From Eledone cirrhosa (lineage: Eukaryota): a stretch of DNA of 64,000 bases. Of the stretch, positions 9,186 to 57,204 are shown piece by piece. The notes under the pieces are model-generated. The model searched no databases. It had not been told where the DNA came from and was given only the letters and a program-made list of their open reading frames with translations. The DNA is taken from NCBI GenBank assembly GCA_964016885.1, contig OZ024750.1:24118001-24182000 (forward strand). The letters are read 5' to 3'. The number at the start of each line of letters is the position of its first letter. Within the stretch, counting starts at the first letter, position 1. The position numbers were made by a program, and so were the translations under genes.

Positions 9186-9391
9186 AAATATATATTATAT
9201 CCAGGTAGTGTAACTTGGAGTTACTGTAGGTTCACCTGGGTGAGCACTCGATGTTTAGGTTAGAGCTAGACAGAGTGTCATCATCATCATCATCATCTTA
9301 GTTTAACGTCCATTTTCCATGCTAGCATGGGTTAGATTATAGTAAAATAAAACAAGGACGAGTGGTTACTCCTTCATTACATTTATTGGTT

Positions 9392-9476
9392 GGTGACGCG
9401 CATTTCGCCATTGATCAGCTCAAGGTTCGATCTGTATCGATCTAGCCCGACTCTGTAATCCATGGCTCATCAGACC
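9392..9476 (-). ncRNA. Type I hammerhead ribozyme, extended helix II
   Basis: GGU-CUGAUGA-GCCAU...AUGGC-GAAA-U-GCGC-G-UC-ACC: full core, helix I GGU/ACC, palindromic loop 3, GUC cleavage triplet. Confidence 0.8.
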
Positions 9477-9523
9477 CCTTATAATGGTAATGAAAAAATC
9501 ATTTTTTCATTACCATTATAAGG

Positions 9524-9608
9524 GGTCTGACGAGCTGTGGATTAGAGAGTCGGGCTAGATCGATACAGATCGAACCTTGAGCTGATCAATGGCGAAATGC
9601 GCGTCACC
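9524..9608 (+). ncRNA. Type I hammerhead ribozyme (mirror copy)
   Basis: GGU-CUGACGA-GCUGU...AUGGC-GAAA-UGCGCG-UC-ACC; helix II kept by G-U wobbles. Confidence 0.72.
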
Positions 9609-9667
9609 AACCAATAAATGTAATGAAGGAGTAACCACTTGTCCTTGTTTTATTTTACTATATGTAC

Positions 9668-9702
<35 letters not shown>

Positions 9703-10255
9703 CATATAACTTAACTGCAGGTGAATAGAAAAACTGTATTGTTATTAATCTAGATCAGCGGTCACCAAATGGTGGTCCGCAGAAAAATATGGACATTATT
9801 TGGAATTTTTAACAAAAATAATATTTGGTTAAAATGTTTTTAGAACCCCACTAAAAATGTTTCTCCTCATTAATTAACTAACATCCATGAAAGAATTTTA
9901 CACATATGTATCATCTATTGACAATATGACACATGTATGCTTCAGTATTGTTTCGACCATTGACCATTAATTCATATTAGTGGTCCATGGGATTTAAAAT
10001 TATGAATTTAGTGGTCCGTGTAGAAGGAAAGTGAGAGATGGACTGTGTAGAGGGAAAATATGACAGAAACAGGACATATTTGGGGGGAAATATGTGCATG
10101 GAAAGGGGTGTATTTGTTGGAAATACTGTGTTGGATCACAACATTGGTTTCTTTCTGAAGAATGTAAGTTTGCAGAAACAGTAGACACATGACTATATGT
10201 ATTCAGTACAAAGAAAAAACTAGTTATAAACAATTATTGAATATACGACATGTAC

Positions 10256-10550
10256 CAGGGGTCTCAAACATCCTGTTACGTGTGGCCAGAAAACTACTTT
10301 TCTATGGCCCACCACAGAACGATTTTCATGACTAATTAAGGAAAATTTGAAACAGGAAATTTGTCCCCCTAAATTTTGTACTAACTCACATATCCCACTT
10401 ACTATAATATGTGTATTCATTTTGATGAAAAAAAAGATAAATAACTGCCTATTAGCTTCATTATAACTGGTGGAAATCTTGCCCCCTCCACTCATCTAAT
10501 TTTAGGCCACTGTTCCTCTTCCCCAGGAGTCCTTAAGTTTGAGATCCCTG
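10256..10550. mobile_element. hAT MITE
   Basis: CAGGGGTCTCAAAC...GTTTGAGATCCCTG TIRs; TSD degenerate. Confidence 0.7.
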
Positions 10551-10692
10551 ATATATAATGTAATGAAAATCATAAAAAGAAAGTTTTGTTGAATCTAAGA
10601 AAGATACTGAGATTGCAAGAAGGATCTTTTAACAGATGTGTTATTGAACAATCAAATTACTACCACACAAAAAAATATGAAGATTTAGATAT

Positions 10693-10881
10693 TTAACCCT
10701 TTAGCATTACACTATATTTACTATTGTATTTTTATGGTAAACGCTTTATCTCACATGATATCTCAAATCTATGAGATTTTGATATTATTTATTTTGAGAA
10801 TAAAACCTTAGCATAAGTATGAACAGAAAGAGGTGAGAGAATTCTGGCTGGATACGGCTGGTTTAAATGCTAAAGGGTTAA
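10693..10881. mobile_element. piggyBac-type MITE (reverse, internal deletion)
   Basis: Same family. Confidence 0.85.
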
Positions 10882-11404
10882 ATAGATAAAAGAATTTTCT
10901 TTAAAGTAGCTTGCTAGAAATGTTCTACCTTTTCTTTGAGTAGCATTTGGAGGAATTTAGTAAAATAATTAACTTGTCTGTTATTAAGCTGATGTTTGGA
11001 GATAGCTTAATAAAAAAAAATCTTGCATAAAATTATGATGAAAGGTTTTGATATAAGTATATAAACACTTTAAAAACGTGGAAACAGTTTTGTATTATAA
11101 AAAAAAGGGTTGGTATCAAAACTGTTATAAATTTATATTTTTAAAAAAGGTAGACATATATATTTTTTTCCATCAACACCGGTTGAGTAACTCAGTCTTT
11201 GCAGCACTGATTTTCACTCCAGCCATGCAACACTTGGCATCTAACCTATCAAGTGTACATCAGAAATCACCTGACGAGTTAAGTAATACCATATTGTCTC
11301 CAAATTCCTGCTGACTGATCCTACACCTGCCTGTCGTGATACCACTTCCAACCTGGTATGGTGCCATTGTAGTCACTGGCATTAACAATGATATATATAT
11401 ATGC

Positions 11405-11885
11405 AGAGCACTAAAAGTTGATGGAAGCCATGAAGTGGGGAGACCCAGGAAGACCTGGGACGACGTAATAAAAGTGGATCTTGCCCAATTGCACCCCTCA
11501 ACGGCGATGACACAGGACTGCGACCTCTTGTGTCACTTAGTAATACAGAAGACCCGACTTCCCATGGGAACAAGCTGAAGCATATAGACAATATGCTCCC
11601 ACCCCCTCCCACTGCAAAGTGGTCGTGGAGGTGTTACGGCAAAAAAGCACCCAGCCCACACTGTAAAGTGGACGTGTAGGCACCACAGGAAAAAAGCACC
11701 CAGCACTCACTGTAAATGAGGTTGGTGTTAGGAAGGGCATCCAGCTGTAGAAATCAAGCAAAAATCAGTTCCCGTATGAGCAAGACAAGGTCAGCCAACC
11801 TAACATTGCCCACAACAGGACAACCCATCTAACCCATGCTAGCATGGAAGAATAGATGTAAAACGGTGATGATTATGATGATGAT
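11405..11885 (+). mobile_element. RTE LINE 3' end with long 3' UTR (family A)
   Basis: GRPRKTWDDVIKVDL ORF end, then a UTR containing 48-bp units and the CCATGCTAGCATGG...(GAT)n tail; second copy at 57680-58072. Confidence 0.7.
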
Positions 11886-12719
11886 ATCAATCAGGATGGA
11901 GTCAGTTTGAAACTGGTTAGACCCTTACTCAACAGAGTGCTCAATACTTGGGGTAGTAGAGTGTGGTTATATTATAAAGATTCGGGACCTGTCAACTGAG
12001 CTCTTACTGTCAACAGCTAGTTCCAGACTGGAACTAACTGTTGAAATGGCAAGAGTTCAGCCATCGGGTCCTGAGTCTTTATAATATATAAGGCACATTG
12101 GAGTTACCCACTAATAATTTGAAGCCAGCTAACATTCAAAAAGATTAAACTGGATTAAATTACACAAAATTCACCTTGTACATTAACTTATTCCATTATG
12201 CAAAACCTGGAAGATTTAAAATACTTTTAGCATTGCTTGGCCTCATATTAAGGGATAATGAAAAATAGTAAATGAATTTATTTCACTCCATAAATAATGA
12301 AGCCCAAGAACAATTTGTTTTGTTTTTGTTTATTTTTTTGAGGGGATGCGATTTTATTGTAAGCAAACATAACCATAAAAATTAGTGACTATATATATAT
12401 TTTTTCATTTTGGTCTGTGCTGGCTAACCGAATACTTCCTATCTAATACCCAACTTTTATGAGCTTATTTGGTGTTTTTTTTTTATGTTAGGCCGTGTTA
12501 GCTCTTGATATATTTAAACATCTCTGCCGTCTATTAGGTTACTGGATTTTTCTATAAAAGCAAAAGATTTACATTTGGAGAGACTATGGCTTAGATATAT
12601 TTAATAAAAGAAAAGAAAGATTGGATAATAATTTATCTAAGAGCGACAACTTCGACCTTAAAGAATACACAATTAATTACGTCCCTTTATTTGCCAATAC
12701 GAAACTAACTGTTAGAAGA

Positions 12720-12736
12720 GACAACTTCCGGTTTGA
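12720..12736. promoter_or_regulatory. ETS/GABP-type site upstream of NDUFB3
   Basis: ACTTCCGGT (ACCGGAAGT on minus) about 55 bp upstream of the ATG; typical of nuclear respiratory-chain gene promoters. Confidence 0.4.
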
Positions 12737-12784
12737 AAGACAAACTGTTTGCAGAAGGTCAAGCATCTAAACTATAATAAAGTA

Positions 12785-12903
12785 ATGGGAGGTGAGAAAT
12801 TTGTAGTCCCTGACTGGAGACAATATAAAGTAGAAGATGCACCACGATTACAAATTTTAGAGAGGAGACTAGCCTCCCATGGCCTAAAAGACCCATGGAT
12901 TCG
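12785..12903 (+). CDS. NDUFB3: NADH dehydrogenase 1 beta subcomplex subunit 3 (B12), coding exon 1
   Basis: MGGEKFVVPDWRQYKVEDAPRLQILERRLASHGLKDPWI(R), donor CG|gtaggt. PDW..YK and GLKDPW.RNE.WRY are NDUFB3 signatures. Confidence 0.93.
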
Positions 12904-13717
12904 GTAGGTAAAACTAAAATATATATTGCTTCGTGAATATTTCTTTATGAAACCAACGATCTTTTTTTGTTGTTAGTGTAGTAAACTAAATAAAGGTGAA
13001 TTGTTGAAGGTGACAAATCGTATATAAAATATTCATATAATATATTATGAACAGCCATTCGTTCTTTTAGTTCTTACATATTGTCTAACAAATATTTCTT
13101 TCAATGACGTTATTGCATAATATATATTTTTGTTATCAGTTACATGCACCTGGCCCTCCAATACATTCATTTAATGTTATATTTCAACACGATAAACAAA
13201 CTTCTATCGATTTTTGGTTGAAGTTAGATCGATTGTTAAAAAGAATAAGGAAATTTACTACTTGTATACTGTACTTGTCAAAACAAATCCAAAGAGAACT
13301 ACGTTTTTAGTTGTCTCTTAAATAATATAAATAGTATTAAGTCAATGAAATCTAATTTAACAAATAACTTCAACGTTTCAGGAGCTGAAATTGGATATCA
13401 ATCAACTTGTTGATACAGACTGAGTATACCGTCTAGATTTTGTATCATAGCTACAAGGTGACTTGAGGGAGATTTAGCACATATTTTCAACAGGTTGGTT
13501 GATTATGTTGCCTGACATTGAAGTTCAATAGTCAACATACCAATAGTTGTTATTGTTTAGTCCCAGGTTAACCCTGTTATGTGGACCTAGCGCCAGACAC
13601 CATGCTTTGCAGCTTAAAATTATGGCCCTTTACGTCCTGAGTTCTTACGTGGTCGATAAAATAAAGTACCAGTAATGCACTGAGGTAATTGCTGGCCTTG
13701 TGCCAAAAGTAGAAACA

Positions 13718-14010
13718 ATTATTGTTTAGTCCCTGGTTAGCCCTGTTATGTGGACTTTTCGTTATTGTTTAGTTCCGGGTTAACCCTGTTTTGTAGACCT
13801 CATTATTATTTAGTCCCAGGTTAGCCGTGTTATGTGGACTTCTCGTTATTGTTTAGTCCCAGATTAGCCCTGTTATGTGGACCTTTCATTAATGTTTAGT
13901 CCCAGGTTAGCCCTGTATTGTGGACCTCTCATTATTTTTTAGTCCCAGGTTAGCCCTGTTTTGTGGACCTCATTGTTTAGTCCCAGGTTAGCCCTGTTTT
14001 GTGGACCTCC
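13718..14010. repeat. Minisatellite, ~41-43-bp unit
   Basis: TTGTTTAGTCCCAGGTTAGCCCTGTTATGTGGACCT... about 7 copies, plus one copy at about 13550 separated by a SINE. Confidence 0.9.
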
Positions 14011-14549
14011 CATCAAAAACATTCCAACTTTCATTATGCCTTTTTTTTTGTACATCCACGACTACATTATCAAATATTCTATTTTTACAGCAGCAGGGTG
14101 TTTTGCTTTTGTTTTTAAAGGAAATTTGGCTGATCTTTTTAGCAGTTTGAATGACCACATATATACATAGACTCCTCAAACTATTAGAATGGGTAATGTG
14201 AGGGTTTTATGTCATAGATTATCAACATTTCAACCTGGTTGTTTATGCCAACTAAGAGACATGGTCCCTGAATCTAATGATTGAATTGTAGTGTATCATC
14301 ATTTTACATCTGTTTTTCCCTGCTTGCAAGGGTGGGACAAACAAAAGCATATATTATACTTTATTCCTTTCTTTTGGGGACATCTTGCTTGTCTTGTAAT
14401 CTTCATCCAATCAAATCCAAATATATGTATCTGTTATTGCAAATGATAATGGGAAATGGGAAACATAAATTTGCTTACCTTGCTGGTCCTGCTCTAATCA
14501 TCACTCTTATCTTGTGGCATAAATCTAGGAAATGCTACCTACCCAGTCT

Positions 14550-15990
14550 CTTCATTGTCCACTTATTCTTGGGTGGGTTGTGGGGGAAGTCCTGAAACCC
14601 TCCTTCCAGGTTCTGTCAGAAGCAACCGGCTGGATCCCCAAGCGAGACCAAATGAGCTCATGGATGTTATCCAACCATCTTGTTTGGGACTATCCCTGAG
14701 TCCTCTGGCAGTTAGTTTTGTCCCTAAAATCTGTCCAACGATTCTTTCCTGAGACATTCTAACCACATGCCCATAGTATCGAAGCTGTGATTTCTCAATT
14801 CGGAGAAGTAGCAGCTCTAATCTCCGAGCTACACACTCTATCAAGTAATGTTACTCCAAAGATCCTTCAGAGGAATGCCATTTTGACCACTTATATTCAC
14901 AATAGTATTCTTTCTTGAGTGGAAAATCAGAGCTGTGGCCTCTCAATTCGGAGAAGTAGCAACTCTGATCTCTGAGCTCAGCACTCTATTGAGTAACATT
15001 ACTCCAAAGACACTTCAGAAGAATCCCATTTCGGACATTTGTAAATAAGATTAAATTCTTTCTGTCATTACCCAAGATTCATGACCATAGGTAAGGGTTG
15101 GCATGAATACCGAATTGAAGGTAGCGAGTTTGCCTACCTCCCTTCTGAATGTTGAAGCTGACACATTACTGCACCAGCTCCTGCAATTCTTGCACTTAAT
15201 TCAGCCTCCTGTCTCGTGAACATGGCCCCTAAATAATTGAACTTCACCACATGCTTTAGTGGAACTTCACTCACATGTAGAGTGTACTACACAAGCATCC
15301 TTGCAAGGATGAGTATCTCAGTCTTCGCAGCATTGATTGTCATTCTAGTTGTGCAGCACTCAGCATCTAACCTATCAAGTGTATATCAGAAATCACCTTC
15401 TGATGAGTTAAGTAATACCATGTCTGCAAATTCCAGCTGACTGATCCTACATTTGCCAGTCTTGATACAACATCCAACCTGATTGCGCATGTCAATCCTA
15501 TTCATGAAGATTATGAACAGGAGAGTGACAATATGCAACCTTGGTGGTGTCCGACTCCTACATTGAATGGTTTCAATTCAGCACCATTTATCCGAACACA
15601 AATACTCAGGCATTCGTATAGAGACATCAGGGCAGCAAGAAGCTGTCAACCGATCCCATACTCCTGCAAACCTTCCACAGCAGGTCCCATGGAACATGGT
15701 CATACACCTTTTCGAGGTCTACAAAGCAAGACTACATCTCTTGGCAGTATTTCCACAATTTTTCAAAGACCTGCCATATTATGAATATTTTGTTGGCTGT
15801 GCTATATCCAGGGCAAAAACCACACTGTTCATCAGCTAACTTGGAGTCGACAATCTTCCTACATCACATTGCCAGTCACTTAGTATAGACTGTACCGAGG
15901 AGGCTTAACAAGGAGATCCCTCTATAATTGGAGCAATCTCTCTTGTCGCCATTTTTTAAAATTGGGATTATCACTTCTGATTGTCATTGC
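14550..15990 (-). mobile_element. Degenerate RTE LINE in the NDUFB3 intron
   Basis: Minus-strand RT remnants (GHHQGCILSLLLFIIFM, IEKSQLRYYGHVVRM); same family as 2880 and 48760. Confidence 0.8.
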
Positions 15991-16604: not shown

Positions 16605-17149
16605 TAATGAACTTTGAACAATAAAACTTAATTTTATTCAAACCCTCTTTAGTAAAGAGGTGTCCAGACATACACTTCAACTGATATGTACTGATCTAAA
16701 ATAAAATAGTAAACATTTATCTTTAGATTTTGTTTTTACTTGAAATTTTTTGTTTTAAAATAATTTATCTTTCAGCTGCTGAACTGTAATAATTCTTTCT
16801 AACATTGGCACAAGTTGATTATATTGACCCAAGTAGTTAACTGGTACTTTATTTTATTAATCTTGGCAGGATGAAAGGCAAAGTTGACCGTGGCAGAATT
16901 TGAACTCAGATTGTAAAGAGCAGGAACAAATGCCGCAAAACATTTTATCCAACATTCTGCCAATCCACATCTACTACAACAACAACAAGATCTGGCTCAA
17001 TTTTCAGTTTTAGGGCAAGATGTTTTAAATGTTTTAAATTAAGATATTTTAGATAATTCTTCCTCAAGTTTAGTTGATCTAAAATGATTTTTAATACACT
17101 ACAAATTTGTAAATATTATTGTTATCTCGAAGGGGATTGGGAAATATCC

Positions 17150-17258
17150 ACAGTTATATAGGTACTGAATACGTTAGTAGAGATTAAGCTAAATTATATT
17201 TATAGAAATGACTTCTACAGGACTAGAACTGTTTCTTTTGTATGAAATCATCAGTAAT
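17150..17258 (-). mobile_element. Second copy of the 36795 hammerhead-like family
   Basis: Reverse complement reads CTGATGATTTCATACAAAAGAAACAGTTCTAGTCCTGTAGAAGTCATT, homologous to 36795-36842. Confidence 0.55.
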
Positions 17259-18270: not shown

Positions 18271-18358
18271 ATCATATATATATGTAAAAGGTAAGCAGGA
18301 ATAACAACAATCAGTACAGTATATATACAGTTAATGCTTGAACTAGCAGGAAGAGGGT

Positions 18359-18393
18359 CTTAACGTTTCAGACACTAGTCTTTCATGAGAAGA
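18359..18393 (-). ncRNA. Degenerate minimal hammerhead
   Basis: CUU-CUCAUGA-A-AGAC(UAGU)GUCU-GAAA-CG-UU-AAG: helices intact, one core substitution (G5>C). Confidence 0.5.
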
Positions 18394-18511
18394 AAGAATG
18401 AGAAATTAAAAAGATTGAAGGGATGGGCAGGGGAGAATCAGAAAAAATGTGAAACTAATAAGACGTTTTGTACCTCTGTTGTCTCCTTGAACTATATATA
18501 TGCAGACCACT

Positions 18512-19071: not shown

Positions 19072-19148
<77 letters not shown>

Positions 19149-20363: not shown

Positions 20364-20389
20364 TTTTAAGAGATGTGTTAGGATATTAC

Positions 20390-21800
20390 TGCAGAAGAGA
20401 ATTATACTCTTGTAAAGTATCTCCATTTTAAGGAGGTGTGCCTCAAAGAACAGTTTTGATGTCACTACTATTTCTAATACCCAGCCAGTGTAGAAAGCAA
20501 GGGTGAACTTTCACTGATTCATCTTCCCCAACCAATATAGAGATGATGTAGTGACTGAAAAAAACATCCAGTAGATGATTTTAATGATTCAAAAATGAGG
20601 ACAACAGCCTGCTGAATGAATCAAGAGAAGGACACCCAAAAGAGCTGGATTCTGATATATTGGAAGCCACTGTTGATGTGAACCTAACTGTTACAGTTTA
20701 GGAATTAAGCACTTACTTCAATGTGAGCCATGTCATCATTCATAAGGAATTGAAAAGGCTTGGAAAAGTGTCAAAGGTTGGAAAATGGATTCCACATGAT
20801 CTCTCTGCAGACAATCACAATGTGTGATTGGATATGCGGGGAATAATTCATTATGAGCTGCTGGGCGTATAATCAAACAATAACAGCCAAAGTCTATTGC
20901 CAACAGCAAAGATGTTTCAAAACAGCTTTGCAGCTAAAACACCTGTAGTGACCTACATTCTGCGGGCTCACATACATCCTCTTCTACTGGCGTTGATTGG
21001 CTGAGCTGAGCCAAATCACGCACAGAGAATGTATGTGAGCCCGCGGAATGTAGGTCACTACAATCCTACATTCCGCGGGCTCACATACATTCTCTGTGCG
21101 TGATTTGGCTCAGCTCAGCCAATCAACGCCAGTAGAAGAGGATGTATGTGAGCCCGCAGAATGTAGGTCACTACACACTCATCATTAACAAACAAAAAAG
21201 GAGTTATCCTTCATCATGATAACACAAGACATCACATTTCACAAAAGACCAAAGATCTCAGAGAAAAACATGCCTGGGAAATTATGCTTCACTCACCATA
21301 TTCTTTGGATATTGCACCAACTGATTATCGTCTCTTTAAAAGTTTGCGAAATAATTTGAGTGGATTAAGACTTACTTCGAGAAGATGTCAAACATGAGTT
21401 AGTTTTCTTTTTTAGTTCAAAACCTACAGGATTTTATGAATGTGGCATTAACAGGTTTATTGACTGATGGAGAGAGGTCATAGAGAAGAATGCTGAATGA
21501 ATAAAGAGTAGGACACCATTAATGATTAAATAAATCTGATATTATGTTTTTTATCGGTAGAGCGTCGGACACCATCCTTTTCAGCATAGAGTTACGGCTG
21601 TTTACGGTCTGAGTTCAAATCCCACTGAGGTTAACTTTGCCTTTCATCCTTATGAGATCGATAAAATAAAGCACCGGTAACGTACTGAGGTCGATTTAAT
21701 CAACTTTCCCCTCCCCACAAATTACTGGCCTTGTGCCTATACTAGAAATCATTGTTTTATTGAGCTTAAAAACAGACAGAACTTTTATTACAACCTCATA
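20390..21800 (+). mobile_element. Mariner transposon fossil
   Basis: Degenerate GKWIPHDLS, GVILHHDN and HSPYSLDIAPTDYRLF motifs; TIR-like end at about 21770-21800. Interrupted by a palindromic insert and a SINE. Confidence 0.85.
20944..21175. mobile_element. Inverted dimer of a 119-bp TIR element inside the mariner
   Basis: Unit 20944-21062 has 34-bp TIRs (TGTAGTGACCTACATTCYGCGGGCTCACATACAT); it is followed by its reverse complement 21065-21175, which lacks the first 8 nt. Confidence 0.8.
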
Positions 21801-26512: not shown

Positions 26513-26549
<37 letters not shown>

Positions 26550-26695: not shown

Positions 26696-26773
<78 letters not shown>

Positions 26774-26990
26774 TTTATTAAAATAACAGATTAAAGTTTA
26801 AGCAAATAATCGCTGCTTTCACCCTTAACGGGATCTTCAGAAGATCCCGTTAAGGGTGAAAGCAGCGATTTTTTGCTTAAACTTTAATCTGTTATTTTAA
26901 TAAATAGTTGCTCTACGGTTCTTATATATTTGATATATATTTATCCTTATCGAGCCTTCTTTGGATTTTAGTCTTCAAATTTATTATTAT

Positions 26991-27023
<33 letters not shown>
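26513..27023. repeat. (TA)n tracts with embedded element fragments
   Basis: Three (TA)n runs; similar runs at 3899, 4157, 19116, 29570, 30499, 31912, 54070 and 56955. Confidence 0.9.
26773..26905. mobile_element. 133-bp fold-back centred in a hammerhead-like core
   Basis: 66-bp arms around a26839; minus strand CUGAAGA-U-CCC(GUUAA)GGG-U-GAAA; lies between (TA)n tracts. Confidence 0.65.
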
Positions 27024-27027
<4 letters not shown>

Positions 27028-29567
27028 ACTGACTATTTGTAACACAAACTTCCAGAAACCTGCCAATCACCTAATAACCTACAAATCTGGCGAGCACATA
27101 AGCCAGATTGACTTCTTACTAGTTAGGCAGCGGGACAGGCAGATAGTGTCTAATATCAAGGCATACCCTGGGGAAGAATGTACCCCACAGCATAGATTAG
27201 TCGTTAGTGATATCTCAGTAAGCAAGAGATGGAATGAGACATACAGGAAGGTGTGGAGAAGAAAGGTCTGGAAGCTAAAAGACCTTTCACTAAAATACAA
27301 ATTTAGGAAAGCCCTTCAAGATGTATATGACGAAAAAGAAGACGATTTAGAGACGTATGACATAGATAATAACTGGAATTTCTTACGTGACAACTTACTG
27401 CAGGCTACTAATGAAACTTGTGGTTTCATTACAGGGAGTGACAGACAGGTTTCATTACAGAGAGTGACCTGGTGGTGGAACAGCACAGTAGATAAGGCCA
27501 TTAGAGACAAAAGACTAGCATGGAAGGCTTGGAAAAAGAGTGGGAGTAGGGAAGAATATATAGCCGCTAAGAGAGAAGCTAGACGTCAGGTGTACTTAGC
27601 ACGCAGGGAGGCTGAGAGTGGGAGGTTTGCTAATGTTCTGCGACGCGAAGATCAGAGGTGTGCGGTGTTCCACATTGCAAGGCAGTGTGTCAATGCAAAT
27701 CAGGATGTTGTTGGAGATAAATGTGTCCGGAATGATGCCGGTGTACTTAGTGTCACGAATGATCAGAAAAAGGAGGCCTGGAAATGTCATTATGAGAGAC
27801 TGATGAATGTGGAGAACGAATGGGAGAGGGAGAAATTACCTTTAGTAGATCCGACAGAGGGACCAGCTATTGAGATTGACCAATATAGGGTCCAAGAGGC
27901 GATTAAGGAAATGAAAAATGGTAAGGCTGCTGGACCATCGGGAATAGTTGCTGAGATGCTGAAGGTATCAGGGGACATAGGCACTAAACTGGTTGCACGC
28001 ATCATCAATCAGGCTATATATGGTGGTGTCATACCCAAAGACTGGTGCAGCAGTATTCTCATAAATTGCTACAAAGGTAAAGGGGATGCTCTGGAGAGGA
28101 GCAATTATAGGGGTATAAAACTGATGGATCAGGTTATGAAAGTGGCAGAAAGGATATTAGCACAACTAATTAGAGAAAGGGTCAAACTAGATGAGATGCA
28201 GTTTAGTTTTGTGCCTGGGAAGAGTACAACAGATGCCCTCTTCTTGGTGAGACAATTGCAAGAGAGATTCTTAGAGAAAAATAAGCCACTATCCTTAGCC
28301 TTTGTTGACCTAGAGAAGGCCTTTGATAGGGAACCCCGATCTGTCATCTGGTGGTCCCTAAGGAAACTAGGTGTTGAGGAATGGCTTGTGAAGACAGTGC
28401 AAACTTTGTACAGAGGTACTGTCAGTAAAGTCAGGGTAGGAATGGAGTTTAGTGAGGAATTCCAGATACAAGTAGGAGTACATGAAGGTTCGGTCCTCAG
28501 CCCGCTCTTGTTCATTATAGTCCTCTAAGCCATAAGAGAGGAGTTTAAGACTGGCTGTCCATGGGAACTTCTCTATGCTGACGGTCTGGTTCTTATAGCA
28601 GAATCAGTAGAGGAGCTAGAGAATAAATTCTGGCTATGGAAACAGCAGTTGGAAGCAAGAGGACTGAGAGTGAACCTAGCTAAGACAAAAGTGTTGATGA
28701 GTAGAAAAGAGGACAAAACTCTGATTCCGTCAGGGAAATGGCCATGCTCGATATGCAGAAAAGGAACTTGCATAAATTCTATAAAATGCACGCAATGCAG
28801 ATCCTGGGTACACAAGAGATGTAGTGGGATAGCAGGCAAACTAACAGGTAGGGAGAAATATGTATGCAGTAGATGTACAGGGAAATTGGACAGTAGAAGT
28901 CGCATTGATAGACACATTTTTCAAATGCAGGAGGGTGCTATAGAAGTGGTGGATAGCTTCCGGTACCTAGGAGATCAGATTAGCATGGGAGGAGGGTGTT
29001 CTGAGGCCATAGTATCTAGAATAAGGATGGGTTGGAAGAAGTTTAGGGAGCTGCTTCTTCTGCTGACGAAGAAGGGTTTCTCCCTGCGTATGAAAGGCCG
29101 GTTGTATGATGCCTGTGTGAGGAGCGCGATGCTGCATGGTAGTGAGACATGGGCAGCAACTGCAGAGGATATGCGACGGCTGGAGAGAAATGAGGCAAGC
29201 ATGTTCTATTAGATGAACAGTGTAAATGTGCGTGAACGACCCATCATGAATGTGTTGAGAGAGAAACTGTGTCTGAGAGGGATAGAATGTAGTGTGCGAG
29301 AGAAGAGACTGAGGTGGTATGGACATGTGATGCGCATGGAGGATGACCGATGGGTGAAGAAGTGCCAGGAAATGCCAGTTGAAGGAAGATGTGGTAGAGG
29401 TAGACCATGAAAAACATGGGTGGAGGTGGTGAGAACAGACCTCAGATCGTTGAAGATCACGGTGGAGATGACGAAGGACCGTGACGAGTGGAGAGATGCT
29501 GTGCTGAATAAGACCCGTCCCACCCTTGCGAGCAGGGAAGAGCGGACGTAAAAAATGATGATGATGA

Positions 29568-29570: not shown

Positions 29571-29619
<49 letters not shown>

Positions 29620-29794
29620 TTAATTAATTAGTATTAATTATACTATTTATGGTTATGTAAATACAAAAACCTTTTGCAGTTATATATATTTTTATACAAA
29701 CCCTAAATAGTGGTAGGCAGTAATATATTACTACCTTATTACCAGTAAGTTAAGTAGCTCAATGTAAAAACATCAGATGATTTACAGAGCAGTT

Positions 29795-30491
29795 ATATGA
29801 AATATAAGAATCAAAGAACTGTTCAAACCATTTTTATGCTTACAACTGTTTCCTCCAAACCGAGGTTTGGATTCTTCGGAGCAATTTATTAATGAGTGAA
29901 CACTTATATGACCTCCTTTTCACCCAAGAGACATACAGATACATATGCAAATATTGCGGGTCAACATTCATTACAGCATTTAGAGTGGCAGTACACACTT
30001 AGAGATTACATTCATATTAAAAGATACAATAAAAAATACAGGTTAAAATACAACATGAAAATAAGCGGTTATATAGTGCAAGGGTTATATGTGTGGCAAG
30101 CACGTGCGTCTTGTTTATATAGTGTGGAAGAGAGTTACGTGTAGTAGAAGCACTTAAGTAGGTAAACAAGAGTGTTAGGTTGGTTGATCTGGTGACAAAT
30201 TCTTTATATGATTGTTATAGTCTGTGTGTGGAGAAATAATATAAGCATTAAAAATATTCGAAATGCGCAGCGAAGGGATGATATGGACTTCATGTACTTC
30301 GACATTTTCATAGCCTGGGGAGTGTATTTTTCAGATTGTATGCCCCTCACATAATCCACGACGATTCGATATGGTGAAAAGGAGGTCATATAAGTGTTCA
30401 CTCATTAATAAATTGCTCCGAAGAATCCAAACCTCGGTTTGGATTCTTCGGAGGTAAGCATAAAAATGGTTTGAACAGTTCTTTGATTCTT

Positions 30492-30502
<11 letters not shown>
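29795..30502. mobile_element. Penelope-like fragment with ~130-bp inverted ends
   Basis: 29795-29924 is the reverse complement of 30373-30502. The arm contains a hammerhead-like motif; the right end abuts (TA)n. Confidence 0.7.
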
Positions 30503-30549
<47 letters not shown>

Positions 30550-30732
30550 GGTGTTAAAGTTTGCTTGAAGCATTGTGAAATGTGTAAAATATGTAGTTTA
30601 GAAAGCCACAACAATGCAGATGGGAAATCTCGAGGTAGGAAGTGAGTGAGAAATAGGAGAAAAGTGAAAATTGAGAGAAACGAAAATGAAAACAAAACAA
30701 AGGTAGAAGGGTTACCGTAGTGGAGATTTAAT

Positions 30733-30766
30733 CCCAATATTTCGGGCTCACGCCCATCAACGGGGG
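30733..30766 (-). ncRNA. Variant hammerhead-like motif in the PLE 3' region
   Basis: CCC-CCGUUGA-U-GGGC(GUGA)GCCC-GAAA-UA-UU-GGG; the core deviates from CUGANGA. Confidence 0.55.
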
Positions 30767-31601
30767 AAAGTTCCAAAAGGGGGGGGGGGGAACAGGCTAA
30801 GCCGGAGAAAGTTGTATTGTCGTTAAAACATAGGAATGCCGTTATGGGGAGAATTCAAACGAGGGAAAGAATGCGCGTGCGCGTGATAGGCTGTGGCAAA
30901 AGCTACTGACCAATCGGGTTAAATCAATAGGGTGCGCTAGCGTGTGAAAGCCGTAAAATATGTGTGTGTAAATATATATGTGTGTGTGTAGCGAGAGTAC
31001 TGGGTTGCATGAATGTAACAAAACGAGACATGGTTTGTGTGTATAATATTTAATTAACAATGGTAGATAGTATAGTTGACATGTCAAAGAAATAGATGAA
31101 AGAATGAAACAAAGTTAGTCGTTACCGTTTTGATTGCCAGGCAAACGCGGCTGGCAGAGGACGCCTGGCTAAGGCCAGGCGCCGGAAGGCAAATGAGAGG
31201 CTCTTGGCCTGGTGCCGAAAGGGCAATGAGAGGCTCTTGGCCTGGTGCCGAAAGGGCAATGAGAGAATGAGAACTTAAAGTTGTTAGTTTTATAGGGTTC
31301 TGACCGGAAGTTACAGAAAGGGTTCTACTTCCCGCCTAGATGTTAATCCAAACAAGGGAGACAACCGCTACATGTGTAACTGTGTGTGTATATATGTATG
31401 TATGTATGTATGTGAGTGTGTGTGTGTGAGAAAGATAGTGGGCCGTAGAAGCTGGAAATCAAAGGGTGTGAAAGGTGGTAGGTTGTATAAACATGTGTGC
31501 GTGTATAAATATAGATGTGTGTGTGTATGTGTATGGGTATACATATAAGTGCGTGTGTGTGAAAGATAGTAGGCCGTAGGGGCTGTTACTGGTCACTATG
31601 G

Positions 31602-31784
31602 TTAAATTAGCCATGTCAGCTCATTTCTCTCAGCCCGGTTGTTAAGTGGGGGTCTGAGGTTCTTAATAACAAGTGCTTCCTTTATCCTTAAGGATCCGAT
31701 GCTGCGTTCAGTCGCTAGGACTGTGACCAAGGGTCTGCCCTGTGGGTTTCCGCATTTAAGGATGTGTTTACGGAAGGAAGATGC
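31602..31784 (-). pseudogene. C-terminal 60 aa of a Penelope-like GIY-YIG endonuclease ORF
   Basis: Manual translation shows H...C and the L.IKEAL.I....P.LN motif, ending at TAA 31604-31602. Not in the ORF track. Confidence 0.8.
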
Positions 31785-31907
31785 GTAACCCTTCTACCTT
31801 TGTTTTGTTTTCATTTTCGTTTCTCTCAATTTTCACTTTTCTCCTATTTCTCACTCACTTCCTACCTCGAGATTTCCCATCTGCATTGTTGTGGCTTTCT
31901 AAACTAC

Positions 31908-31945
<38 letters not shown>

Positions 31946-36763: not shown

Positions 36764-36940
36764 TGTTTCATTCGAAGGAAATCATAAGGCTTTCCTGATG
36801 ATTTCCTTCGAATGAAACAGTTTTAGTCCAGTAGAAGCCATTTTTATATTAAATATTCATACTCTGCTATTGAGTACCTTACTTACTGTGGTTACCTCCG
36901 ATTGAACCCGGGACTCACACACACGATGTCCGAGTTAATT
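36764..36940 (+). mobile_element. PLE-type 3' fragment with hammerhead-like motif and short inverted copy
   Basis: CUGAUGA-U-UUC(CUUC)GAA-U-GAAACAGUU at 36795; 36764-36785 is inverted to 36798-36819; ends in (TA)n. Confidence 0.6.
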
Positions 36941-37857
36941 TATATATATATATATATATATATATTGTATTTTCTTAAATATTTCTCCTAAGACTTGGCT
37001 GGTAATTTTGCTTCCTTGGAAACGGATATTTTCTATGTACTGTCATTTAAACTTGAGTTAACCCCTAATTCCACTATTAACTTTTGGCGAGGAATAAATG
37101 ACATTGAAATAAATGGTTAGTTGAATTTATATTGACTGTGAGAATCTACCAAAATAATAAACGAGTCTAGTATAGTTGACGTATATTATGTTAGTTAAAG
37201 GGCTATTTGATTTTTATCGAATCTAGTTTCTAAAATATTAGAATACCTGGTCATAGGACAGGTGTTCGAGTGTTGCCTCAGTTCATTTAGCCATTGCATG
37301 TAGATCTGGTAATATTGATAAGTGTTATTCAGACAAATATTTACCTCTCCACTAACTGTGGACCATTCAAACATTTACTTTTCTCTTTTTGACCAATACA
37401 AAGATTGTGTGTAACACAGGGAGGAGACGGCTTTTAACTTACTAAAAAATTATAATTAAAAACTCAATGCATTATGTCTGTTGGATGTCGTGTTAATTTT
37501 ACATTAGGATAGGAGTAAATAATTTTTCTAACGATTTATTGAATTGTTTTCTTTCAATGATTTACTCCAAAAGATAAATATTGACAGATACTACTGATTT
37601 ATTAAAAAGTTATTGTGAAGAATAGTATGATGAGTTTTAATTACTTATACATTGTTACAAATACTATTTTACTTATACTTTGGTATTTCTTTTCAAGGTT
37701 AAAATAATTAAACTTATCAGTGTTTATGAGAGCCATGACTGGTTCAGTTCATCGGTTATAAGATTCATATCTAGTTGCCAGTAGTGTTAGAACTCTGACC
37801 AAGACAATTTTAAATGAACTAACCCAGTAAGTATTAATATGTACTACAGTGTAATGG

Positions 37858-49505: not shown

Positions 49506-50674
49506 CTAAACGGTAAAACAAAAATGACAAAAAAGACATGTTATTGACACTTCAATAAAAGAATCTTGGTTAATGTCGTTTTTCACATAAATATTTAATC
49601 AAATATTAATCAGTCTAAAGGACAAAATGTTATGAAACAAAATATAGCAATAGTAATTTGTTTCACACTTCCTGTTTGTGTATTTTGAGATGTTAAAAGC
49701 CTATTTATCTTTCTGTTAAATCAAGGAATATAATTTTAAAACTATTGTTGGATAATTCAACTTCCCTGAAGAATATAATAAATCAATAGATAAATATATT
49801 AAATTTTTGAAGTGCATATATTTAATTAAAAATTGTTTGTATAATTTAATCCACTAACCAGGAAACATATGCCTATTTATATTAATTGTGTCATAAAAGT
49901 AAGATGTAATTTCCTGATGGAATAACTTTACAAATTGATTTCAATTTTGTCATTAATGACTTATTAACCCTTTAGCATTTACATTGCTCTGTATTTACTA
50001 TTGTATTTTCGGGGTAAAGGCTTTACCTCAAATAATAACATCTATGAGATTTTGTTATTATTTATTTTGAGAACAATACCTTAACATCGGTATGAGCGGT
50101 CGGTTATGGTCGGTTTGAGCAAAAAGAAGTGAGAGAATCCTGGCTGGATATGGTTGGTTTTAATGCTAAAGGAAAAGTGTGAATACCATAGAATTTGATT
50201 CCCGTCTTTAAATTTGTAGATATGACAAAGAGGAATCAATACCATATTGAACATTTTATAGTGAGATTTTAGCATTGTATTGAAATTGAATCATATTTTT
50301 ATTATAAGGAATTCAGTGAAAAGAAAGTATGAACCTAATTGTTTTTCAAGAATGCTGGTTAGTCTGAGTATTTAATACATAATAAATTTATATAGGTATT
50401 TTATTCATTCTTAGGACTGTCTAACTACATGTTTCATAACTTTTTTTTTATATGAAAGATGCTATTATTTTAAATATATGCAAAAAATAACTAGTATTTC
50501 ATTTAACTCACATAATCTTGTAACACCATTTTAAGTATGAAAGCAGTGGGGCTGCTATCATGAAAGCACCCAAGAGATCTCCAATGAAATGCAACTGCAA
50601 AAGATGCTGGCCAAGTCTACACAGGTGTAAACTGTAACAGCAAAATTATTTTAAGTATTTAATTATTTAATTAT

Positions 50675-51004
50675 GGAGGCACATGGCTTAGTGGTTAGCG
50701 CATTGGCCTTGCAATCGAAAGGTTGTGAGTTCAATTCTCAGACCGGGTGATGTGTTGTTTCCTTGAGCAAGACACTTTATTTCACATTGCTCCAGTTTAC
50801 TCAGCTGTAGAAATGAGATGATAGGACTAGGGTCCCTATCATTCCACTGCAAAGTGGTTGTGGAGGTGCCACGGCAAAAAATCACCCAGCACTCACTGTA
50901 AATGAGGTTGGTGTTAGGAAGGGCATCCAGCTGTAGAAATCAAGCCAGAATCAGTTCCCGTCCCACCTTTGCAAGCAGGGAAAACGGACGTATGATGATG
51001 ATGA
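50675..51004 (+). mobile_element. SINE S1
   Basis: Full-length copy. Confidence 0.85.
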
Positions 51005-51832
51005 ATTTTAGATTCTTCATATAAATTAAACTGATAGAGGTTTTTATTTTTTCTATTGACAAACAGCCGGTTGGTTAGATTTTAGAAAACATCCTAGGTC
51101 ATTTTTTTTTCAAAATCTTTGAAACATATTCTTATATTTTTGGTCTTGCCACAGTGTTATTTGATAAAAGGTTCTTGTGGATAGATGGTGTCTATCAAAG
51201 CTGGGCACCTAGTCAACATGGTCATTTCAAGCTGAACTTGCATGCCATTCTAGTAACAAAGATATTTCTTAGGAATTACTTTACTTCAAAAGTGATTAAT
51301 GAGATTAAAATCACCATCATCGTCATCGTCATCATCATCATCTTCATCACCATCATCATCATCATTGTTTAACATCCATTTTCCCTGCTAGCATATGCTT
51401 AAGAATTATATCTTAATATTGAGTATTGTTATTTCAGGAAGAGTATTCATAAAAGAAACCTGCAGAGTTACTGACAGTTATTGATCAGATGGGAAATAAA
51501 CATCAGAAACACCCATAGCTGTTAAGTTGATGTGCAAAGAAAGTAAAGTAATTGATGTAATTGGATATATATTTCCTACTTGTGAAGGAACTGATGGTTG
51601 CCAATAGCCTGCAGCTATTGATTGAAAAGTAAATAGTTCATATCTTGTCACCATTGCATCAACTTCACTGTCAACATACTAATTTCACTAGCTCAATCAT
51701 GCCATCTGTAAATTGATAGCTACAGCTTATGCTTAGTTTCAGTTCACTGTTAAAAAATGAACAAGTATTGAGTTTAATTCTTTGAATAGGAACCCATCCA
51801 GTACTAACTCTATTAAATCTCATTATTACATA

Positions 51833-52872
51833 CGGTGGATTGGCAGAATCGGTAGAGCATTGGACAACATGCTTCGTGGCATAAAGTTATGGCCCTTTGC
51901 ATTCTAAGTTCAAATCCTGCTGAGGTTAGCTCTGCCTTTCATCCTTACAGGGTCGATAATTATAAAGTACCAGTAATGCACTGGGGTCGATTTAATCAAC
52001 CCCCCCCTCCCCCAAATTGCTGGTCTTGTGCCTATAATAGAAATCATTATTACATACTGGATTAGGGTGATGGATTGGCAAAATTGGTAGAGCATTGGAC
52101 AACATGCTTCGCGGCATAAAGTTACGACTCTTTACGTTCTGAGTTTAAATCCCTCTGAAGTTAGCTTTGCTTTTCATCCTTACGGGGTTGATAAAATAAA
52201 GTACCAGTAATGAAGTGGGCCAATTTAATCGACTTTCCCCTCCCCTTCAAAGTGTTGGCCTTGTGCCTATAGTAGAAACAATTATTACATACTGGATTAG
52301 AACATTGCACTAATATTTAGCAGTATTTGATCTGTCTCTATATGTTGAGGTCAACTTTACCTTTCATCTGTCTCTATATGTTCTGAGGTCAACTTTACCT
52401 TTCATCCTTCCAAGGTTGATCAAGTACCAGTGAAGAACTGGGGTTGGTATAACCAGTTTTTGCCTCTCCTAAAATTCCTGTCCTTGTGTCTACATTAGAA
52501 ATCCCGCCAAGGTTAACTTTGCCTTTCATCCTTACAGGGTCAATAAAATAAAGTACCAGTAATGCACTGGGTAGTTGCTGGCCTTGTGCCTAAAGTAGAA
52601 ACAATTATTACATAAGTACGGTGGATTGGCAGTATCGGTAGAGGGTTGGACGCCATGCTTTGACGCATAGAGTTACGGCCCTTGCCATTCTGAGTTCAAA
52701 TCCCGCCGAGGTTAACTTTGCCTTTCATCCTTATGGGGTCGATAAAATAAAGTACCAGTAATGCACTGGGTAATTGCTGGCCTTGTGCCAAAAAGTAGAA
52801 ACAATTATTACATAAGTACCAGTAATACACTGGGTAATTGCTGGCCTTGTACCAAAAGTAGAACAATTATTA
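51833..52872 (+). mobile_element. Head-to-tail cluster of SINE S2 copies and fragments
   Basis: At least six S2 units, mostly separated by ATTATTACATA. Confidence 0.85.
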
Positions 52873-52953
52873 CATACTAGATATTAAATTTCAGTAATTA
52901 AATATTTGTCTTTTGTTATTAAATTGAAAATTAGTTATTTCACTAAACCTTTC

Positions 52954-53507
52954 TTAACCCTTTAGCATTTAAACCAGCTATATCCAATCAGAATTCTCTC
53001 CCTCTTTCTGTTCAAACCAGATGTAACCAGCCACTTATACTTCTGTTAAGGTATTGTTCTCAACATAAATGATATCAAAAATTATGTCAGATAATTATGT
53101 AAGATAAAGCTTTTACCACAAAAATACAATAGTATATATAGAGTAATATATATGGAGGCACATGGCTTAGTGGTTAGAGCATTGACCTTGCAATCGAAAG
53201 GCTGTGAGTTCAATTCTCAGACCAGGTGATGTGTTGTTTCCTTGAGCAAGACACTTTATTTCACATTGCTCCAGTTTACTCAGCTGTAGAAATGAGATGA
53301 TAGGACTAGGGTCCCCATCATTCCACTGCAAAGTGGTCGTGGAGGTGCCACGGCAAAAAAGCCCCCAGCATTCACTGTAAATGAGGTTGGTGTTAGGAAG
53401 GGCATCCAGCTGTAGAAATCAAGCCAGAATCTGTTCCCGTCCCACCCTTGCAAGCAGGGAAAAGCGGACGTAAAATGAAATGATGATGATGAAGATGAAA
53501 GGGTTAA
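52954..53507. mobile_element. piggyBac-type MITE split by SINE S1
   Basis: Body 52954-53150; terminal AAAGGGTTAA 53498-53507. Confidence 0.8.
53154..53497 (+). mobile_element. SINE S1 inserted in a MITE terminal repeat
   Basis: Full-length copy; the MITE end AAAGGGTTAA resumes at 53498. Confidence 0.85.
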
Positions 53508-54064
53508 TCCTCAATTATTTCAATAAGTAGAACATAGTGGCAGCATATTCTATGATCTGAAGAAGAATTCAGTCTCAATCAATCTTTATTGAATGAAAGG
53601 TTTGATTATAATTTTGGTTAGTCTGCAGTAGCTCACCCATTGTTTGACTGGGGCGGTATATCAGCAGTAATCGATAGGGCATCAGGCAACATACTTTATG
53701 GCATATAGTTACAGCCCTTTACGTTCTGAGTTCACATCCCTCCGAGGTTAGCTTTGCCTTTCATCTTTACAAGGTCAATAAAATAAAGTACCAGTAATGA
53801 CCTGGGACTAATTTAATTGACTTTTCCTTTCCCTTTCAAATTGCTGGCTTGCTATCTGAATTAGAAACATCAGGTAGTGAATGATTTTGTTAATAATTCC
53901 AATCTATTTAACAAATCTCAGAACTTTAATATGTGATATTTGGGTCTACCTACAACAATTCATATCCACTAATTCTAGCAGGAATTGGGCCAGTGCCTTT
54001 TATAGCTCTGGGCCAACCAATGGCTTATTAGTGAATTTCATAGAGAGAAACTGCATGGAAGCCA

Positions 54065-54103
<39 letters not shown>

Positions 54104-54144
54104 GAAAGGTATAGAAAACACTGCAGCGAAAAGCCAACAGCACT

Positions 54145-54176
<32 letters not shown>

Positions 54177-54455
54177 AGAACAAAAGATGGTTAAAGGAGT
54201 TCCATGTATTTTATTATGCGCATTTCCATGTATTTTATTGCTTTATTGTACTACAATAAAACTCACCTCCTACATATATATATATATATAGATAGGTAAA
54301 TATACACGGGTGTGTATGATTGTGTATAGAAGATTATATTAATAAGAGGAATTCCAACTTTGTCTGATTTACTCGTTTTATTTACAATCCTTTAAAATAT
54401 ATAATGGTATTATAATGAAATAGTATGATAGAATATTAAATTCTAAGTGTTAATT

Positions 54456-54492
54456 GAACAAGTACTTTCATGCTTTCGCAATCTTCAGGTTC
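54456..54492 (-). ncRNA. Minimal type I hammerhead ribozyme
   Basis: GAAC-CUGAAGA-U-UGC(GAAA)GCA-U-GAAA-GUAC-UU-GUUC: perfect helix I, GNRA-capped helix II, palindromic helix III. Confidence 0.75.
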
Positions 54493-54723
54493 ATAATATG
54501 TGGTGACAGTCAAGTTTGCAATTTTCAACTGTAATAAGATGGGTAAATTTCCTACCTTTTATACATTTTATACAGAGAAAAGTGGCTCCAGAATGCTAAG
54601 CCCTGTAAACTGTATTTCGACCAATGTGTGTGCATAAGTCTGTGTTTATTTTTTTCTATTTACAATTGGCATTGCAAGTGGTGATATTTGTTTGTTTCAC
54701 ATGTGTGAAGATCTGTACCTTAT

Positions 54724-54950
54724 TTAACCATTTAGCATTTAAACTGGCTGTCTCCAGCCAGAATTCTCTCACCTCTTTCTGTTCAATCCGGTTGTAACTG
54801 GCCACACATATCAAAGTTAAGGTATTGTTCTCAAAATGAATAATATCACAATCTCATAGATTTGATATTATGTGAGATAATTATGAGGTAAAGCCTTTAC
54901 TGTGAAAATATAATAGTATATATAGAGCAATGTAAATGCTAAAGGGTTAA
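54724..54950. mobile_element. piggyBac-type MITE
   Basis: Same family. Confidence 0.85.
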
Positions 54951-55919
54951 AAGCCAAAAAACTAAAAAAACATGAGTTAGCATTAGGAAAGGCACCTAAC
55001 TGTAAAATTCTGCAAAATAAAAAAATTAAAAAAGATTCATCAGACCTGTGCCAGCATGAAAAGAAAACAGACATAAAACTGATGATGATATGAAATGATT
55101 TGTAGTATCAAAATCTATAACTTTTATGTAATCTGTACAAACAGATCTATATATAACCAACAGTTTGTAAATGGAAAAAAAAAAAAAATGACTCGTGTGT
55201 TAACCTGTGACACACCATTTATCATATGAATTTTTTTATTGGAAGATATTGGCTGCTCTTTGTTATGTTTCTCAGAAAATCTAGGAAAGTAACTTGATTT
55301 TCTCTGTACTGGTAGGAGACCCAGGCAATAAATCCTGAGCAAGATGGTTGGATAACATCCATGAGCTTGACTTGTCAAGCTTGGAGATCCAGCTAGATCA
55401 GTTAGAGAGGGTTTCTTCTGACAGGACCCGCTGGAGGGAGTGGACAAAGAGGAGGAGAAGAACATGGTTTTCTTAACTAGCAACAAAGTAGATGAGAATA
55501 TTCATTGTAAAAACGTTTAGTTTTGCTGGGATTTCTAATATTCTTTTCTTAAAGATTAATTTATACTGACAAGGAAACATCTAAATGATTTTTATATTAT
55601 CTTAGATGAGAAATTTCTAAATATGAATCATTCATAAGATAATGTGGCCATGAGGTTTAGTTTGTTTTATCTATATAGATATAAAATGAATCAGATATGA
55701 ATACTATGATTTTCTTCAGTTAGTTTTATATTAAAATAATAATTTAAATTACATTTACAATATTTACCCATGTATATACTGCCCTCTCACTCCATTTTGT
55801 CTGAGAAATGGGCAAATATACAAACTCGTGTATAAGCCGAGGCACATTGTTTACATGGCACAGTTTTGTAAATACCCACAAGTGGAGAATATTTGTATGA
55901 AGTTTTAATATTTTTAGAT

Positions 55920-56300
55920 CTAATGGTGGATGGGTGCTACATGAGAATGTTGAGGATGGCTCTGAACATTAATCAGTATACACTGAGGATGAAGTACTCA
56001 GAGCTGTACAGGAGCCTCCCAAAATGCAGCTCGAAATTGACACAGAGGAGACTGAGGTTAGCTGAACATGCTCTCTGATATTCAGAGTTGACACTGCACT
56101 CAGTGGTCCTGTGGGAGCCCCCTACACAGACATACTGGAAGAGAGAGACTGAGGTTGACATATATTGATGCCCTAAGGACAGACACTGGTCTCTGGGAGA
56201 CGCAGGACATAGCGGCGATGAGGAAGGGGTCAGAGACTGTTGAGAACTCATCCATGGATCTAGGGAATTTTACCCACCCTAGGTATAGCGATAGATCTAA
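55920..56300 (+). mobile_element. RTE-type LINE 3' fragment
   Basis: DGCYMRMLRMALNI...RRLRLAEH...LWEP...TYID.L..DTG. Confidence 0.65.
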
Positions 56301-56542
56301 AATGTTTTTAAGTGTTATCTTGAGTATAATTTTTGTTTCACAACTCCATTTAATGATTTTTTTTTTGCCATTTCATCCATTTTATAAAGTTTCAACAAGT
56401 TTCTAGAATTTTTGTCAATAGCACAGGTTTATATTTAACATACAAATCAAATAAAATTTGTATATGTATAAAATATACACACGCATAATCTATTTACATT
56501 TGTGGTTGTATGTGTGTGTGTTACACATCGTTTTATGCATCA

Positions 56543-56882
56543 ACGGCCCTTGCCATTCTGAGTTCAAATCCCGCCAAGGTTAACTTTGCTTTTTATCCTT
56601 ACGGGGTCGATAAAATAAATACCAGTAATGCACTGGGTAATTGCTGGCCTTGTGCCTAACGTAGAAACAATTATAGATTTGTGTGTCAAGGGCGGTGGAT
56701 TGGCAGTATAGGTAGAGGGCCGGACGCCATGCTTTGACGCATTGAGTTACGACCCTTGCCATTCTGAGTTCGAATCCCACCGAGGTTAACTTTGCCTTTC
56801 ATCCTTACGGGGTCGATAAAATAAAGTACCAGTAATACACTGGAGTAATAGCTGGTCTTGTGCCAAAAGTAGAAACAATTAT
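56543..56882 (+). mobile_element. Two tandem SINE S2 copies
   Basis: The second copy is flanked by a duplicated TAGATTTGTGTGTCAA. Confidence 0.8.
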
Positions 56883-57011
56883 AGATTTGTGTGTCAATGT
56901 GTTAGTATAAAAGTATGTTTGTAAGTTTTTATATTTATCATAAAAGTGTTTCAATATATATATATATATATATATATATATCAAATAATTGTAATGGTAG
57001 TTAAGATGGGT

Positions 57012-57204
57012 TTAAATCACCATAATTGTTTATTACATTATATATATTTCTGTTACATGGTTATTCATGTGACTTCATCAGATGCTTATGCAATCATTGG
57101 TGCAGTTATGCAATCATCGTAATCGCATAAGCATCTGACAAAGTCACATGAATAACCATGTAACAGAAATATATATAATGCAATAAACAATTATGGTGAT
57201 TTAA
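57012..57204. mobile_element. Fold-back element with hammerhead motif on each arm
   Basis: Arms of ~80 bp. Minus 57085-57035 reads GCAU-CUGAUGA-A-GUCACAUG...CAUGUAAC-A-GAAA-UAUAUA-UA-AUGU; plus 57131-57181 is the same with core CUGACAA. Confidence 0.75.

Follow-up and report, generated by a model that had tools for sequence, protein, structure and literature searches.

Dual minimal hammerhead ribozymes lying on opposite strands, 100–700 bp apart, have been ascribed to truncated Penelope-like elements (PLEs) (Cervera and De la Peña 2014, PMC4209133), and inverted copies, one-sided tails and a TA bias are described for endonuclease-bearing PLEs (PMC8557442, PMC3846280), as far as the accessible parts of these papers go. 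For the anole PLE Poseidon, the available text of PMC11167929 reports two start sites of reverse transcription that bound the tail, with cleavage of both target strands; the build-up of inverted and tandem PLE insertions is called open there and in PMC8557442. Here we analysed 64,000 nt of the Eledone cirrhosa genome (contig OZ024750.1, positions 24,118,001 to 24,182,000; hereafter the window), which harbours six fold-back loci, A to F, as well as three solo hammerhead-like motifs. Judged from their sequences, the fold-backs are probably truncated head-to-head copies of ribozyme-bearing terminal repeats of several PLE families, likely dead and likely formed anew at each insertion into TA repeats.

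The window shares with the metazoan PLE hammerheads of PMC4209133 the type I core, the short helix I and the palindromic helix III, as well as the presence of many divergent families per genome, mostly as solo motifs. It differs in abundance (2,000–9,000 motifs per genome cited there versus about 200,000 estimated here, with differing descriptors) and in the full helix III of families B and E, and the parts of that paper at hand contain no junction mapping. The insertions described in PMC8557442 and PMC3846280 likewise have a head-to-head repeat, a tail at one end, TA targeting, junction palindromes and an initiator-like motif in the repeat (TCACT in PMC3846280), and an internal PLE promoter has been reported (PMC2377424). 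In contrast to their tails of 30–40 nt, tails measure about 60–165 nt here, and most copies are stubs that lack an open reading frame (ORF) and are walled at a fixed inner site. Poseidon, as assayed in vitro, resembles the present elements in its two internal reverse transcription starts that define the tail, its AT-rich target and its upstream ribozyme; unlike there, where the ORF starts inside the ribozyme, the family B ORF starts 45 nt past the tail, and the sections of PMC11167929 available to us say nothing of palindromic products. Metazoan non-LTR (long terminal repeat) retrozymes are, according to the accessible text of PMC7229834 and 10.64898/2026.07.22.740005, also non-coding carriers of type I hammerheads akin to PLE terminal repeats, but form head-to-tail arrays of fixed length that are expressed as circles, whereas the window contains head-to-head single stubs of variable length. 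An octopus genome survey lists PLEs and leaves ribozymes unmentioned in its main text (PMC13282606). A literature search over titles and abstract openings, with most subscription papers and supplements outside its reach, found no report of these stubs or of a pile-up at RNA starts; families of this kind may figure in the supplements of PMC8557442 and PMC4209133.

Hammerhead motifs and Penelope-like architecture

All six inverted-repeat loci of the preliminary description are present, A, B, E and F as short-spacer fold-backs and C and D as long, uneven ones, which a fold-back scan limited to spacers below 60 nt skips and self-BLAST recovers. The fold-back point, said to lie close to the motif throughout, is remote at these latter two, since their junctions are about 530 and 1000 nt away. 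Searching the window with a type I hammerhead descriptor revealed five motifs at four loci (9473 minus, 9527 plus, 29879 minus, 54488 minus and 57081 minus), all with the conserved core and helices I–III in type I order; loci B, D and E, the right arm of F and the solos at 17225 and 18359 do not reach this standard. Thirty block-wise dinucleotide shuffles of the window yielded a mean of 0–0.07 motifs and a maximum of one, and a stricter descriptor detected four motifs as compared to a shuffled mean of 0.15, four being reached in none of 40 shuffles. An Rfam scan of the window returned no hammerhead at E ≤ 1, just sub-threshold hairpin and tRNA models, and minimum-energy folds of single motifs, which mostly did not form the full hammerhead, were uninformative. 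The three solo motifs announced earlier all exist; the one at 54456 is intact, while those at 17225 and 18359 belong to real families but have decayed. Two-polarity ribozyme palindromes, as postulated, were confirmed at locus A, the only fold-back of the six with an intact motif on both strands, and for about 10 pairs in a genome sample (read off the motif lists), and not at the other five window loci.

This sample comprised 112 evenly spaced 10-kb stretches (1.12 Mb) of the 3.0-Gb genome, which has 36% GC and abundant (TA)n. It contained 79 motifs spread over 41 stretches, 69 of them with a CYGANGA core, as compared to 1, 0 and 1 in three shuffles, and extrapolation gives roughly 200,000 motifs per genome (144,000–284,000 by bootstrap over stretches). 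The proposed orientation of 3' ends toward (TA)n applies genome-wide: (TA)4 occurs within 300 nt downstream of 69 of the 79 motifs and upstream of 37, versus 27% at random positions. An inverted partner lies upstream of 35 motifs, with cut sites 50–3710 nt apart, a count in which pairs enter with both arms and one array with four units. Arms of families B and E numbered 32 and 30, corresponding to roughly 86,000 and 80,000 per genome, whereas C was represented by three arms of low identity and A, D and F by none; direct genome searches nonetheless gave hundreds to thousands of candidates for each such family, and all five fold-back families searched are high-copy. A direct search with the solo at 54456 had no match, although copies turn up in the random sample. 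Given these genome-wide motif and arm counts, the window is typical for the genome. Family B (e.g. at locus L227) is young, with its CAGAAGA core and predicted UU cut site retained, and family D (window 30735-30765, loci L181-L195) occurs as dozens of identical copies on one chromosome, with a hammerhead-like motif that lacks the conserved A6.

A full family B element consists of a terminal repeat, a leader, a frame encoding reverse transcriptase (RT) and GIY-YIG domains, and a second terminal repeat. Numbered relative to the predicted hammerhead cut, as are all element positions below, the repeat contains the hammerhead, a core end at +29 and a tail end at +115. At four of eight other loci with an ORF start, repeat and tail continue into the leader and the ATG, showing that the tail consists of downstream sequence belonging to the element, as in PMC11167929. 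Long B copies hold a 692-aa frame, in which an RT-type DD motif and GIY-YIG were identified by eye; Pfam and PDB searches with this ORF had no match, and its 127 relatives, many with PF26215, include none named PLE, so that the assignment rests on motifs and architecture. GIY-YIG frames were also found upstream of A, of D and of one E copy, and three, possibly four, fold-back families connect to such frames; family F has one neighbouring N-terminal match. In A and B a Cys linker, not literally CX2-5CxxC, separates RT and endonuclease; a Cys-rich linker at this place, together with tree position, defines the Neptune clade of PLEs. Inverted 5'-truncated copies with a one-sided tail occur in A, B, C, D and E, and hardly any long copies exist of families A and E. 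Thus, the suggested origin from PLEs, the presence of minimal type I hammerheads and of inverted copies, and the targeting of TA sites are supported by the ORFs, the descriptor, the partners and the (TA)4 counts.

Outer ends, junctions and inner ends of the arms

Junctions were compared with queries taken entirely from sequence downstream of the predicted cut site, for which the best 30, 30, 40 or 20 matches were analysed; the B and E sets contain the window's own copy. Among the best 30 tail-anchored B matches, 24 have an inverted partner, with 23 kinds of junction. The partner of the tail-bearing arm stops at +24 to +29 in 22 of these 24 cases and at +115 in none. Hence, each arm of a pair finishes at a fixed 3' site of its own. 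For family A, 21 of the best 40 matches have a partner, all 21 junctions being distinct, and one copy is two-tailed; for family E the partner is present in 13 of the best 30 matches, with 11 distinct junctions and two two-tailed copies. In public contigs, loose TA ends lie at both +29 and +111/+115, and strand-switch joints are numerous, any single one being present in one or two contigs, with the caveat that run X1 may be the source sample. The window's own B junction, which is located on a 7-nt micro-palindrome, is seen at six loci, with the tail on either arm (3 versus 3) and different loop variants. Recurrence in both polarities is what independent joining would give. As the junctions are nearly all distinct and the sole recurrent one occurs in both polarities, there is no mobile palindrome family, and the proposal of mobile, retrozyme-like units did not survive the comparison of fold-back points. 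An apparent common junction of family E (21 of 40 matches) was discarded because the query overlapped the junction; the tail-anchored search found varied junctions around one site. A pattern-based tally of E junction classes, which captured a single locus, was left aside. A native hairpin as the cause of the E junctions was also dropped, as the locus used lacked native upstream sequence. Two near-identical family E copies (L222 and L223 on C2, 8 kb apart) with common flanks and opposite orientation likely reflect a local inverted duplication.

The inner ends of the arms were counted after pooling all loci minus those retrieved with upstream-reaching queries. They pile up at a wall: 41 of 102 B arms start in -52..-35 (3 and 10 in equal windows upstream and downstream), 31 of 63 E arms in -50..-35 (1 and 17), and 18 of 50 A arms in -112..-95 (0 and 10), with one of 50 beyond the wall. 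These walls fall on TTAGTT, TCAGCT and TCATTT, which resemble an initiator. B arms starting at -46 or -49 are preceded by G in 8 of 11 cases as compared to 11 of 61 elsewhere (p=6e-4), and an untemplated G is present in all four tail-anchored B arms that start there. Neither B end clusters at -255 and -533, which likely are subfamily alignment breaks, nor family C ends at -437, which reflect the reference end, were considered further. A rise in contig depth across -52..-34 in two runs was not used as evidence, since depth is not copy number and X1 may be the source sample; in a small run, X4, the skew to the hammerhead region over L417:1045-1560 is much stronger than in X1.

Candidate routes to the mirror-image stubs

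The inner-end pile-ups likely mark the start of the element RNA. In the scheme that we propose, an endonuclease would cut (TA)n, and both DNA ends would prime reverse transcription at the two fixed 3' sites. Upon priming in the front repeat, only 75–250 nt of template would lie ahead, and with so short a template the enzyme would run off the capped RNA start, sometimes adding a G. The two cDNAs would then be joined via 0–8 nt of microhomology. Long arms could arise when priming takes place in the rear repeat, or when the template is tandem or circular RNA. Such a second kind of template is needed, as 37 of the 102 B arms extend past the wall and the front repeats of full-length copies start upstream of it.

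Several of our observations weigh against this scheme. The two features just named are themselves a difficulty, four full-length B front repeats starting at -72, -216, -245 and -288 rather than at -46, and the RNA start is deduced from DNA alone. The extra G was observed in one family; for three of its eight occurrences the partner arm may be the source, and it is missing from the two A arms that start at -105. Family C displays no wall near its ribozyme and no ORF within 1.5 kb, and the E junction assignments are rough because the reference is 88–95% identical. Finally, present data do not separate priming at both ends from fold-back self-priming.

The latter forms part of an alternative that we regard as unlikely, though worth weighing, according to which the copies are PLE stubs whose ends reflect stalling or slipping of RT at the structured ribozyme region and whose mirror arm belongs to a single self-primed cDNA. 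Self-priming has been suggested for palindromic junctions in the accessible part of PMC3846280, and some junctions here lie on micro-palindromes with 4–8 nt of overlap; in addition, the B and E walls coincide with the 5' edge of stem I. However, a stall would be expected on entering the structure and not past its exit, and the wall of family A lies about 20 nt upstream of stem I, so that it follows the initiator-like site rather than the fold. This alternative also leaves the untemplated G and the differing fixed 3' ends of the arms unexplained.

It is very unlikely that the palindromes or single stubs are non-autonomous units copied in trans by PLE proteins in the manner of retrozymes. Very many stubs exist (in 1.12 Mb, about 32 arms of B and 30 of E), long copies are nearly lacking in A and E, one B junction recurs at six loci, and initiator, ribozyme and tail can persist in stubs, all of which such mobility would accommodate; against it stand the junction diversity and the 3 versus 3 split of the recurrent junction with its differing loop variants, the ribozyme being broken in most window copies, and the lack of head-to-tail tandem hammerhead units in the window. 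Moreover, the anole PLE requires RNA 3' of the main priming site, as stated in the accessible text of PMC11167929, whereas the stubs stop at or before the tail end. Elsewhere in the genome, L342:8630-9800 (C3, about 280.009 Mb) contains at least four tandem 311-nt units, each with a type I hammerhead, and this retrozyme-like array is preceded by one inverted unit. A related scenario appears quite improbable as well: stubs joined exactly at the RNA start, e.g. A, in which each arm starts at the initiator-like site, might keep the internal promoter both ways and emit short outward ribozyme RNAs, some of which would be recopied by PLE proteins, forming a non-autonomous class resembling short interspersed nuclear elements within the roughly 200,000 hammerheads of the genome.

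That template cleavage by the ribozyme fixes the inner ends is extremely improbable: 7 of 102 B arms start within -4..+2, but 4 and 3 arms fall in the adjacent 7-nt windows, the counts for E (3/63) and A (2/50) likewise show no clear excess at the predicted cut, the main pile-up lies 35–110 nt upstream of it, and ribozyme mutants had no effect on insertion in vitro according to the portion of PMC11167929 at hand.

Taken together, the mirror-image stubs are genuine and exceed chance by far, yet they are PLE by-products of a kind already known, whereas the fixed inner wall with its added G provides a modest, testable clue to PLE insertion. If the walls are RNA starts, the stubs of each family map the promoter and both priming sites without RNA and supply exact products against which an in vitro assay can be checked. 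The estimated number of intact-looking hammerheads would be above the 'up to 120,000' that a section title of PMC7229834 states for axolotl, with differing descriptors. Whole A and B are predicted to form near-perfect hairpins (-291 and -98 kcal/mol), so that a read-through transcript would bury the ribozymes; tens of thousands of such hairpins, if transcribed, would also yield double-stranded RNA.

Feature coordinates and neighbouring sequences

Table 1. Fold-back and solo hammerhead loci in the window (positions of the 64,000-nt stretch; cut sites are predicted).
Feature	Positions	Strand	Details
Family A tail, left arm	9201..9337	-	split by an insertion of roughly 57 nt (about 9279-9335) with (GAT)n at its end
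Family A left arm	9338..9499	-	core 9473-9467; cut between 9395 and 9394; begins at initiator-like site; fold-back A spans 9338-9662, arms 162 nt
Family A right arm	9501..9662	+	core 9527-9533; cut after 9605
Family A right arm 3' end		+	equals core end, inside (TA)n 9659-9708
Solo, decayed relative of family E (74%)	17145..17257	-	core 17254-17248; descriptor not passed
Solo of another family	18280..18410	-	core 18389-18383, G5>C; most relatives canonical
Family B left arm	26773..26838	-	tailless; adjoins (TA)43; 2 bp of stem I left
Family B right arm (to 26905), with centre base and 88-nt tail	26839..26993	+	followed by (TA)15; core CAGAAGA; cut after 26878; stem I truncated; fold-back B spans 26773-26905
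Family C long arm	29617..30372	-	tail about 165 nt; adjoins (TA)23; C-variant hammerhead intact (core 29879-29873)
Family C short inverted arm	30373..30503	+	core rearranged; terminates in (TA)24; inverted repeat of 29794-29924
Family D long arm and tail	30547..31784	-	hammerhead-like motif, non-canonical core 30763-30757 (CCGTTGA, A6 missing)
GIY-YIG C-terminal fragment in family D arm	about 31608-31829	-	
Family D short inverted arm	31785..31915	+	motif absent; terminates in (TA)n; inverted repeat of 30585-30715
Family E fold-back	36764..36915		22-nt left arm, without core start; right-arm core 36795-36801, with a mismatch in stem III; tail ends at about 36915; inverted repeat 36764-36819; (TA)12 at 36941, beyond the tail
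Solo, intact minimal hammerhead	54380..54530 (bounds approximate)	-	core 54488-54482; 4-nt palindromic stem III
Family F fold-back	56982..57208		left arm intact, core 57081-57075 (minus), adjoins (TA)14; right-arm core 57135-57141 with G8>A; inverted repeat 57008-57208

The junction of fold-back B takes away most of stem I in both arms. The insertion that splits the A tail presumably represents the 3' end of a long interspersed nuclear element (LINE). Directly after the TA tract of element B starts a broken LINE-type RT frame (RVT_1; 26972-29212, plus strand), and elements B, C and D crowd together with this LINE around common TA tracts. The TA tract of an earlier copy can itself receive a stub, and at L122, L128, L421 and L424 long ORF-bearing B arms adjoin stubs starting at -44 or -46. 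Apart from these elements, the window contains a perfect inverted repeat with 111-nt arms and internal sub-repeats (20944-21175), which lacks a hammerhead and is possibly a miniature DNA transposon, and an open frame with a proline-rich stretch (2108-2536, plus strand), possibly an exon of a host gene.

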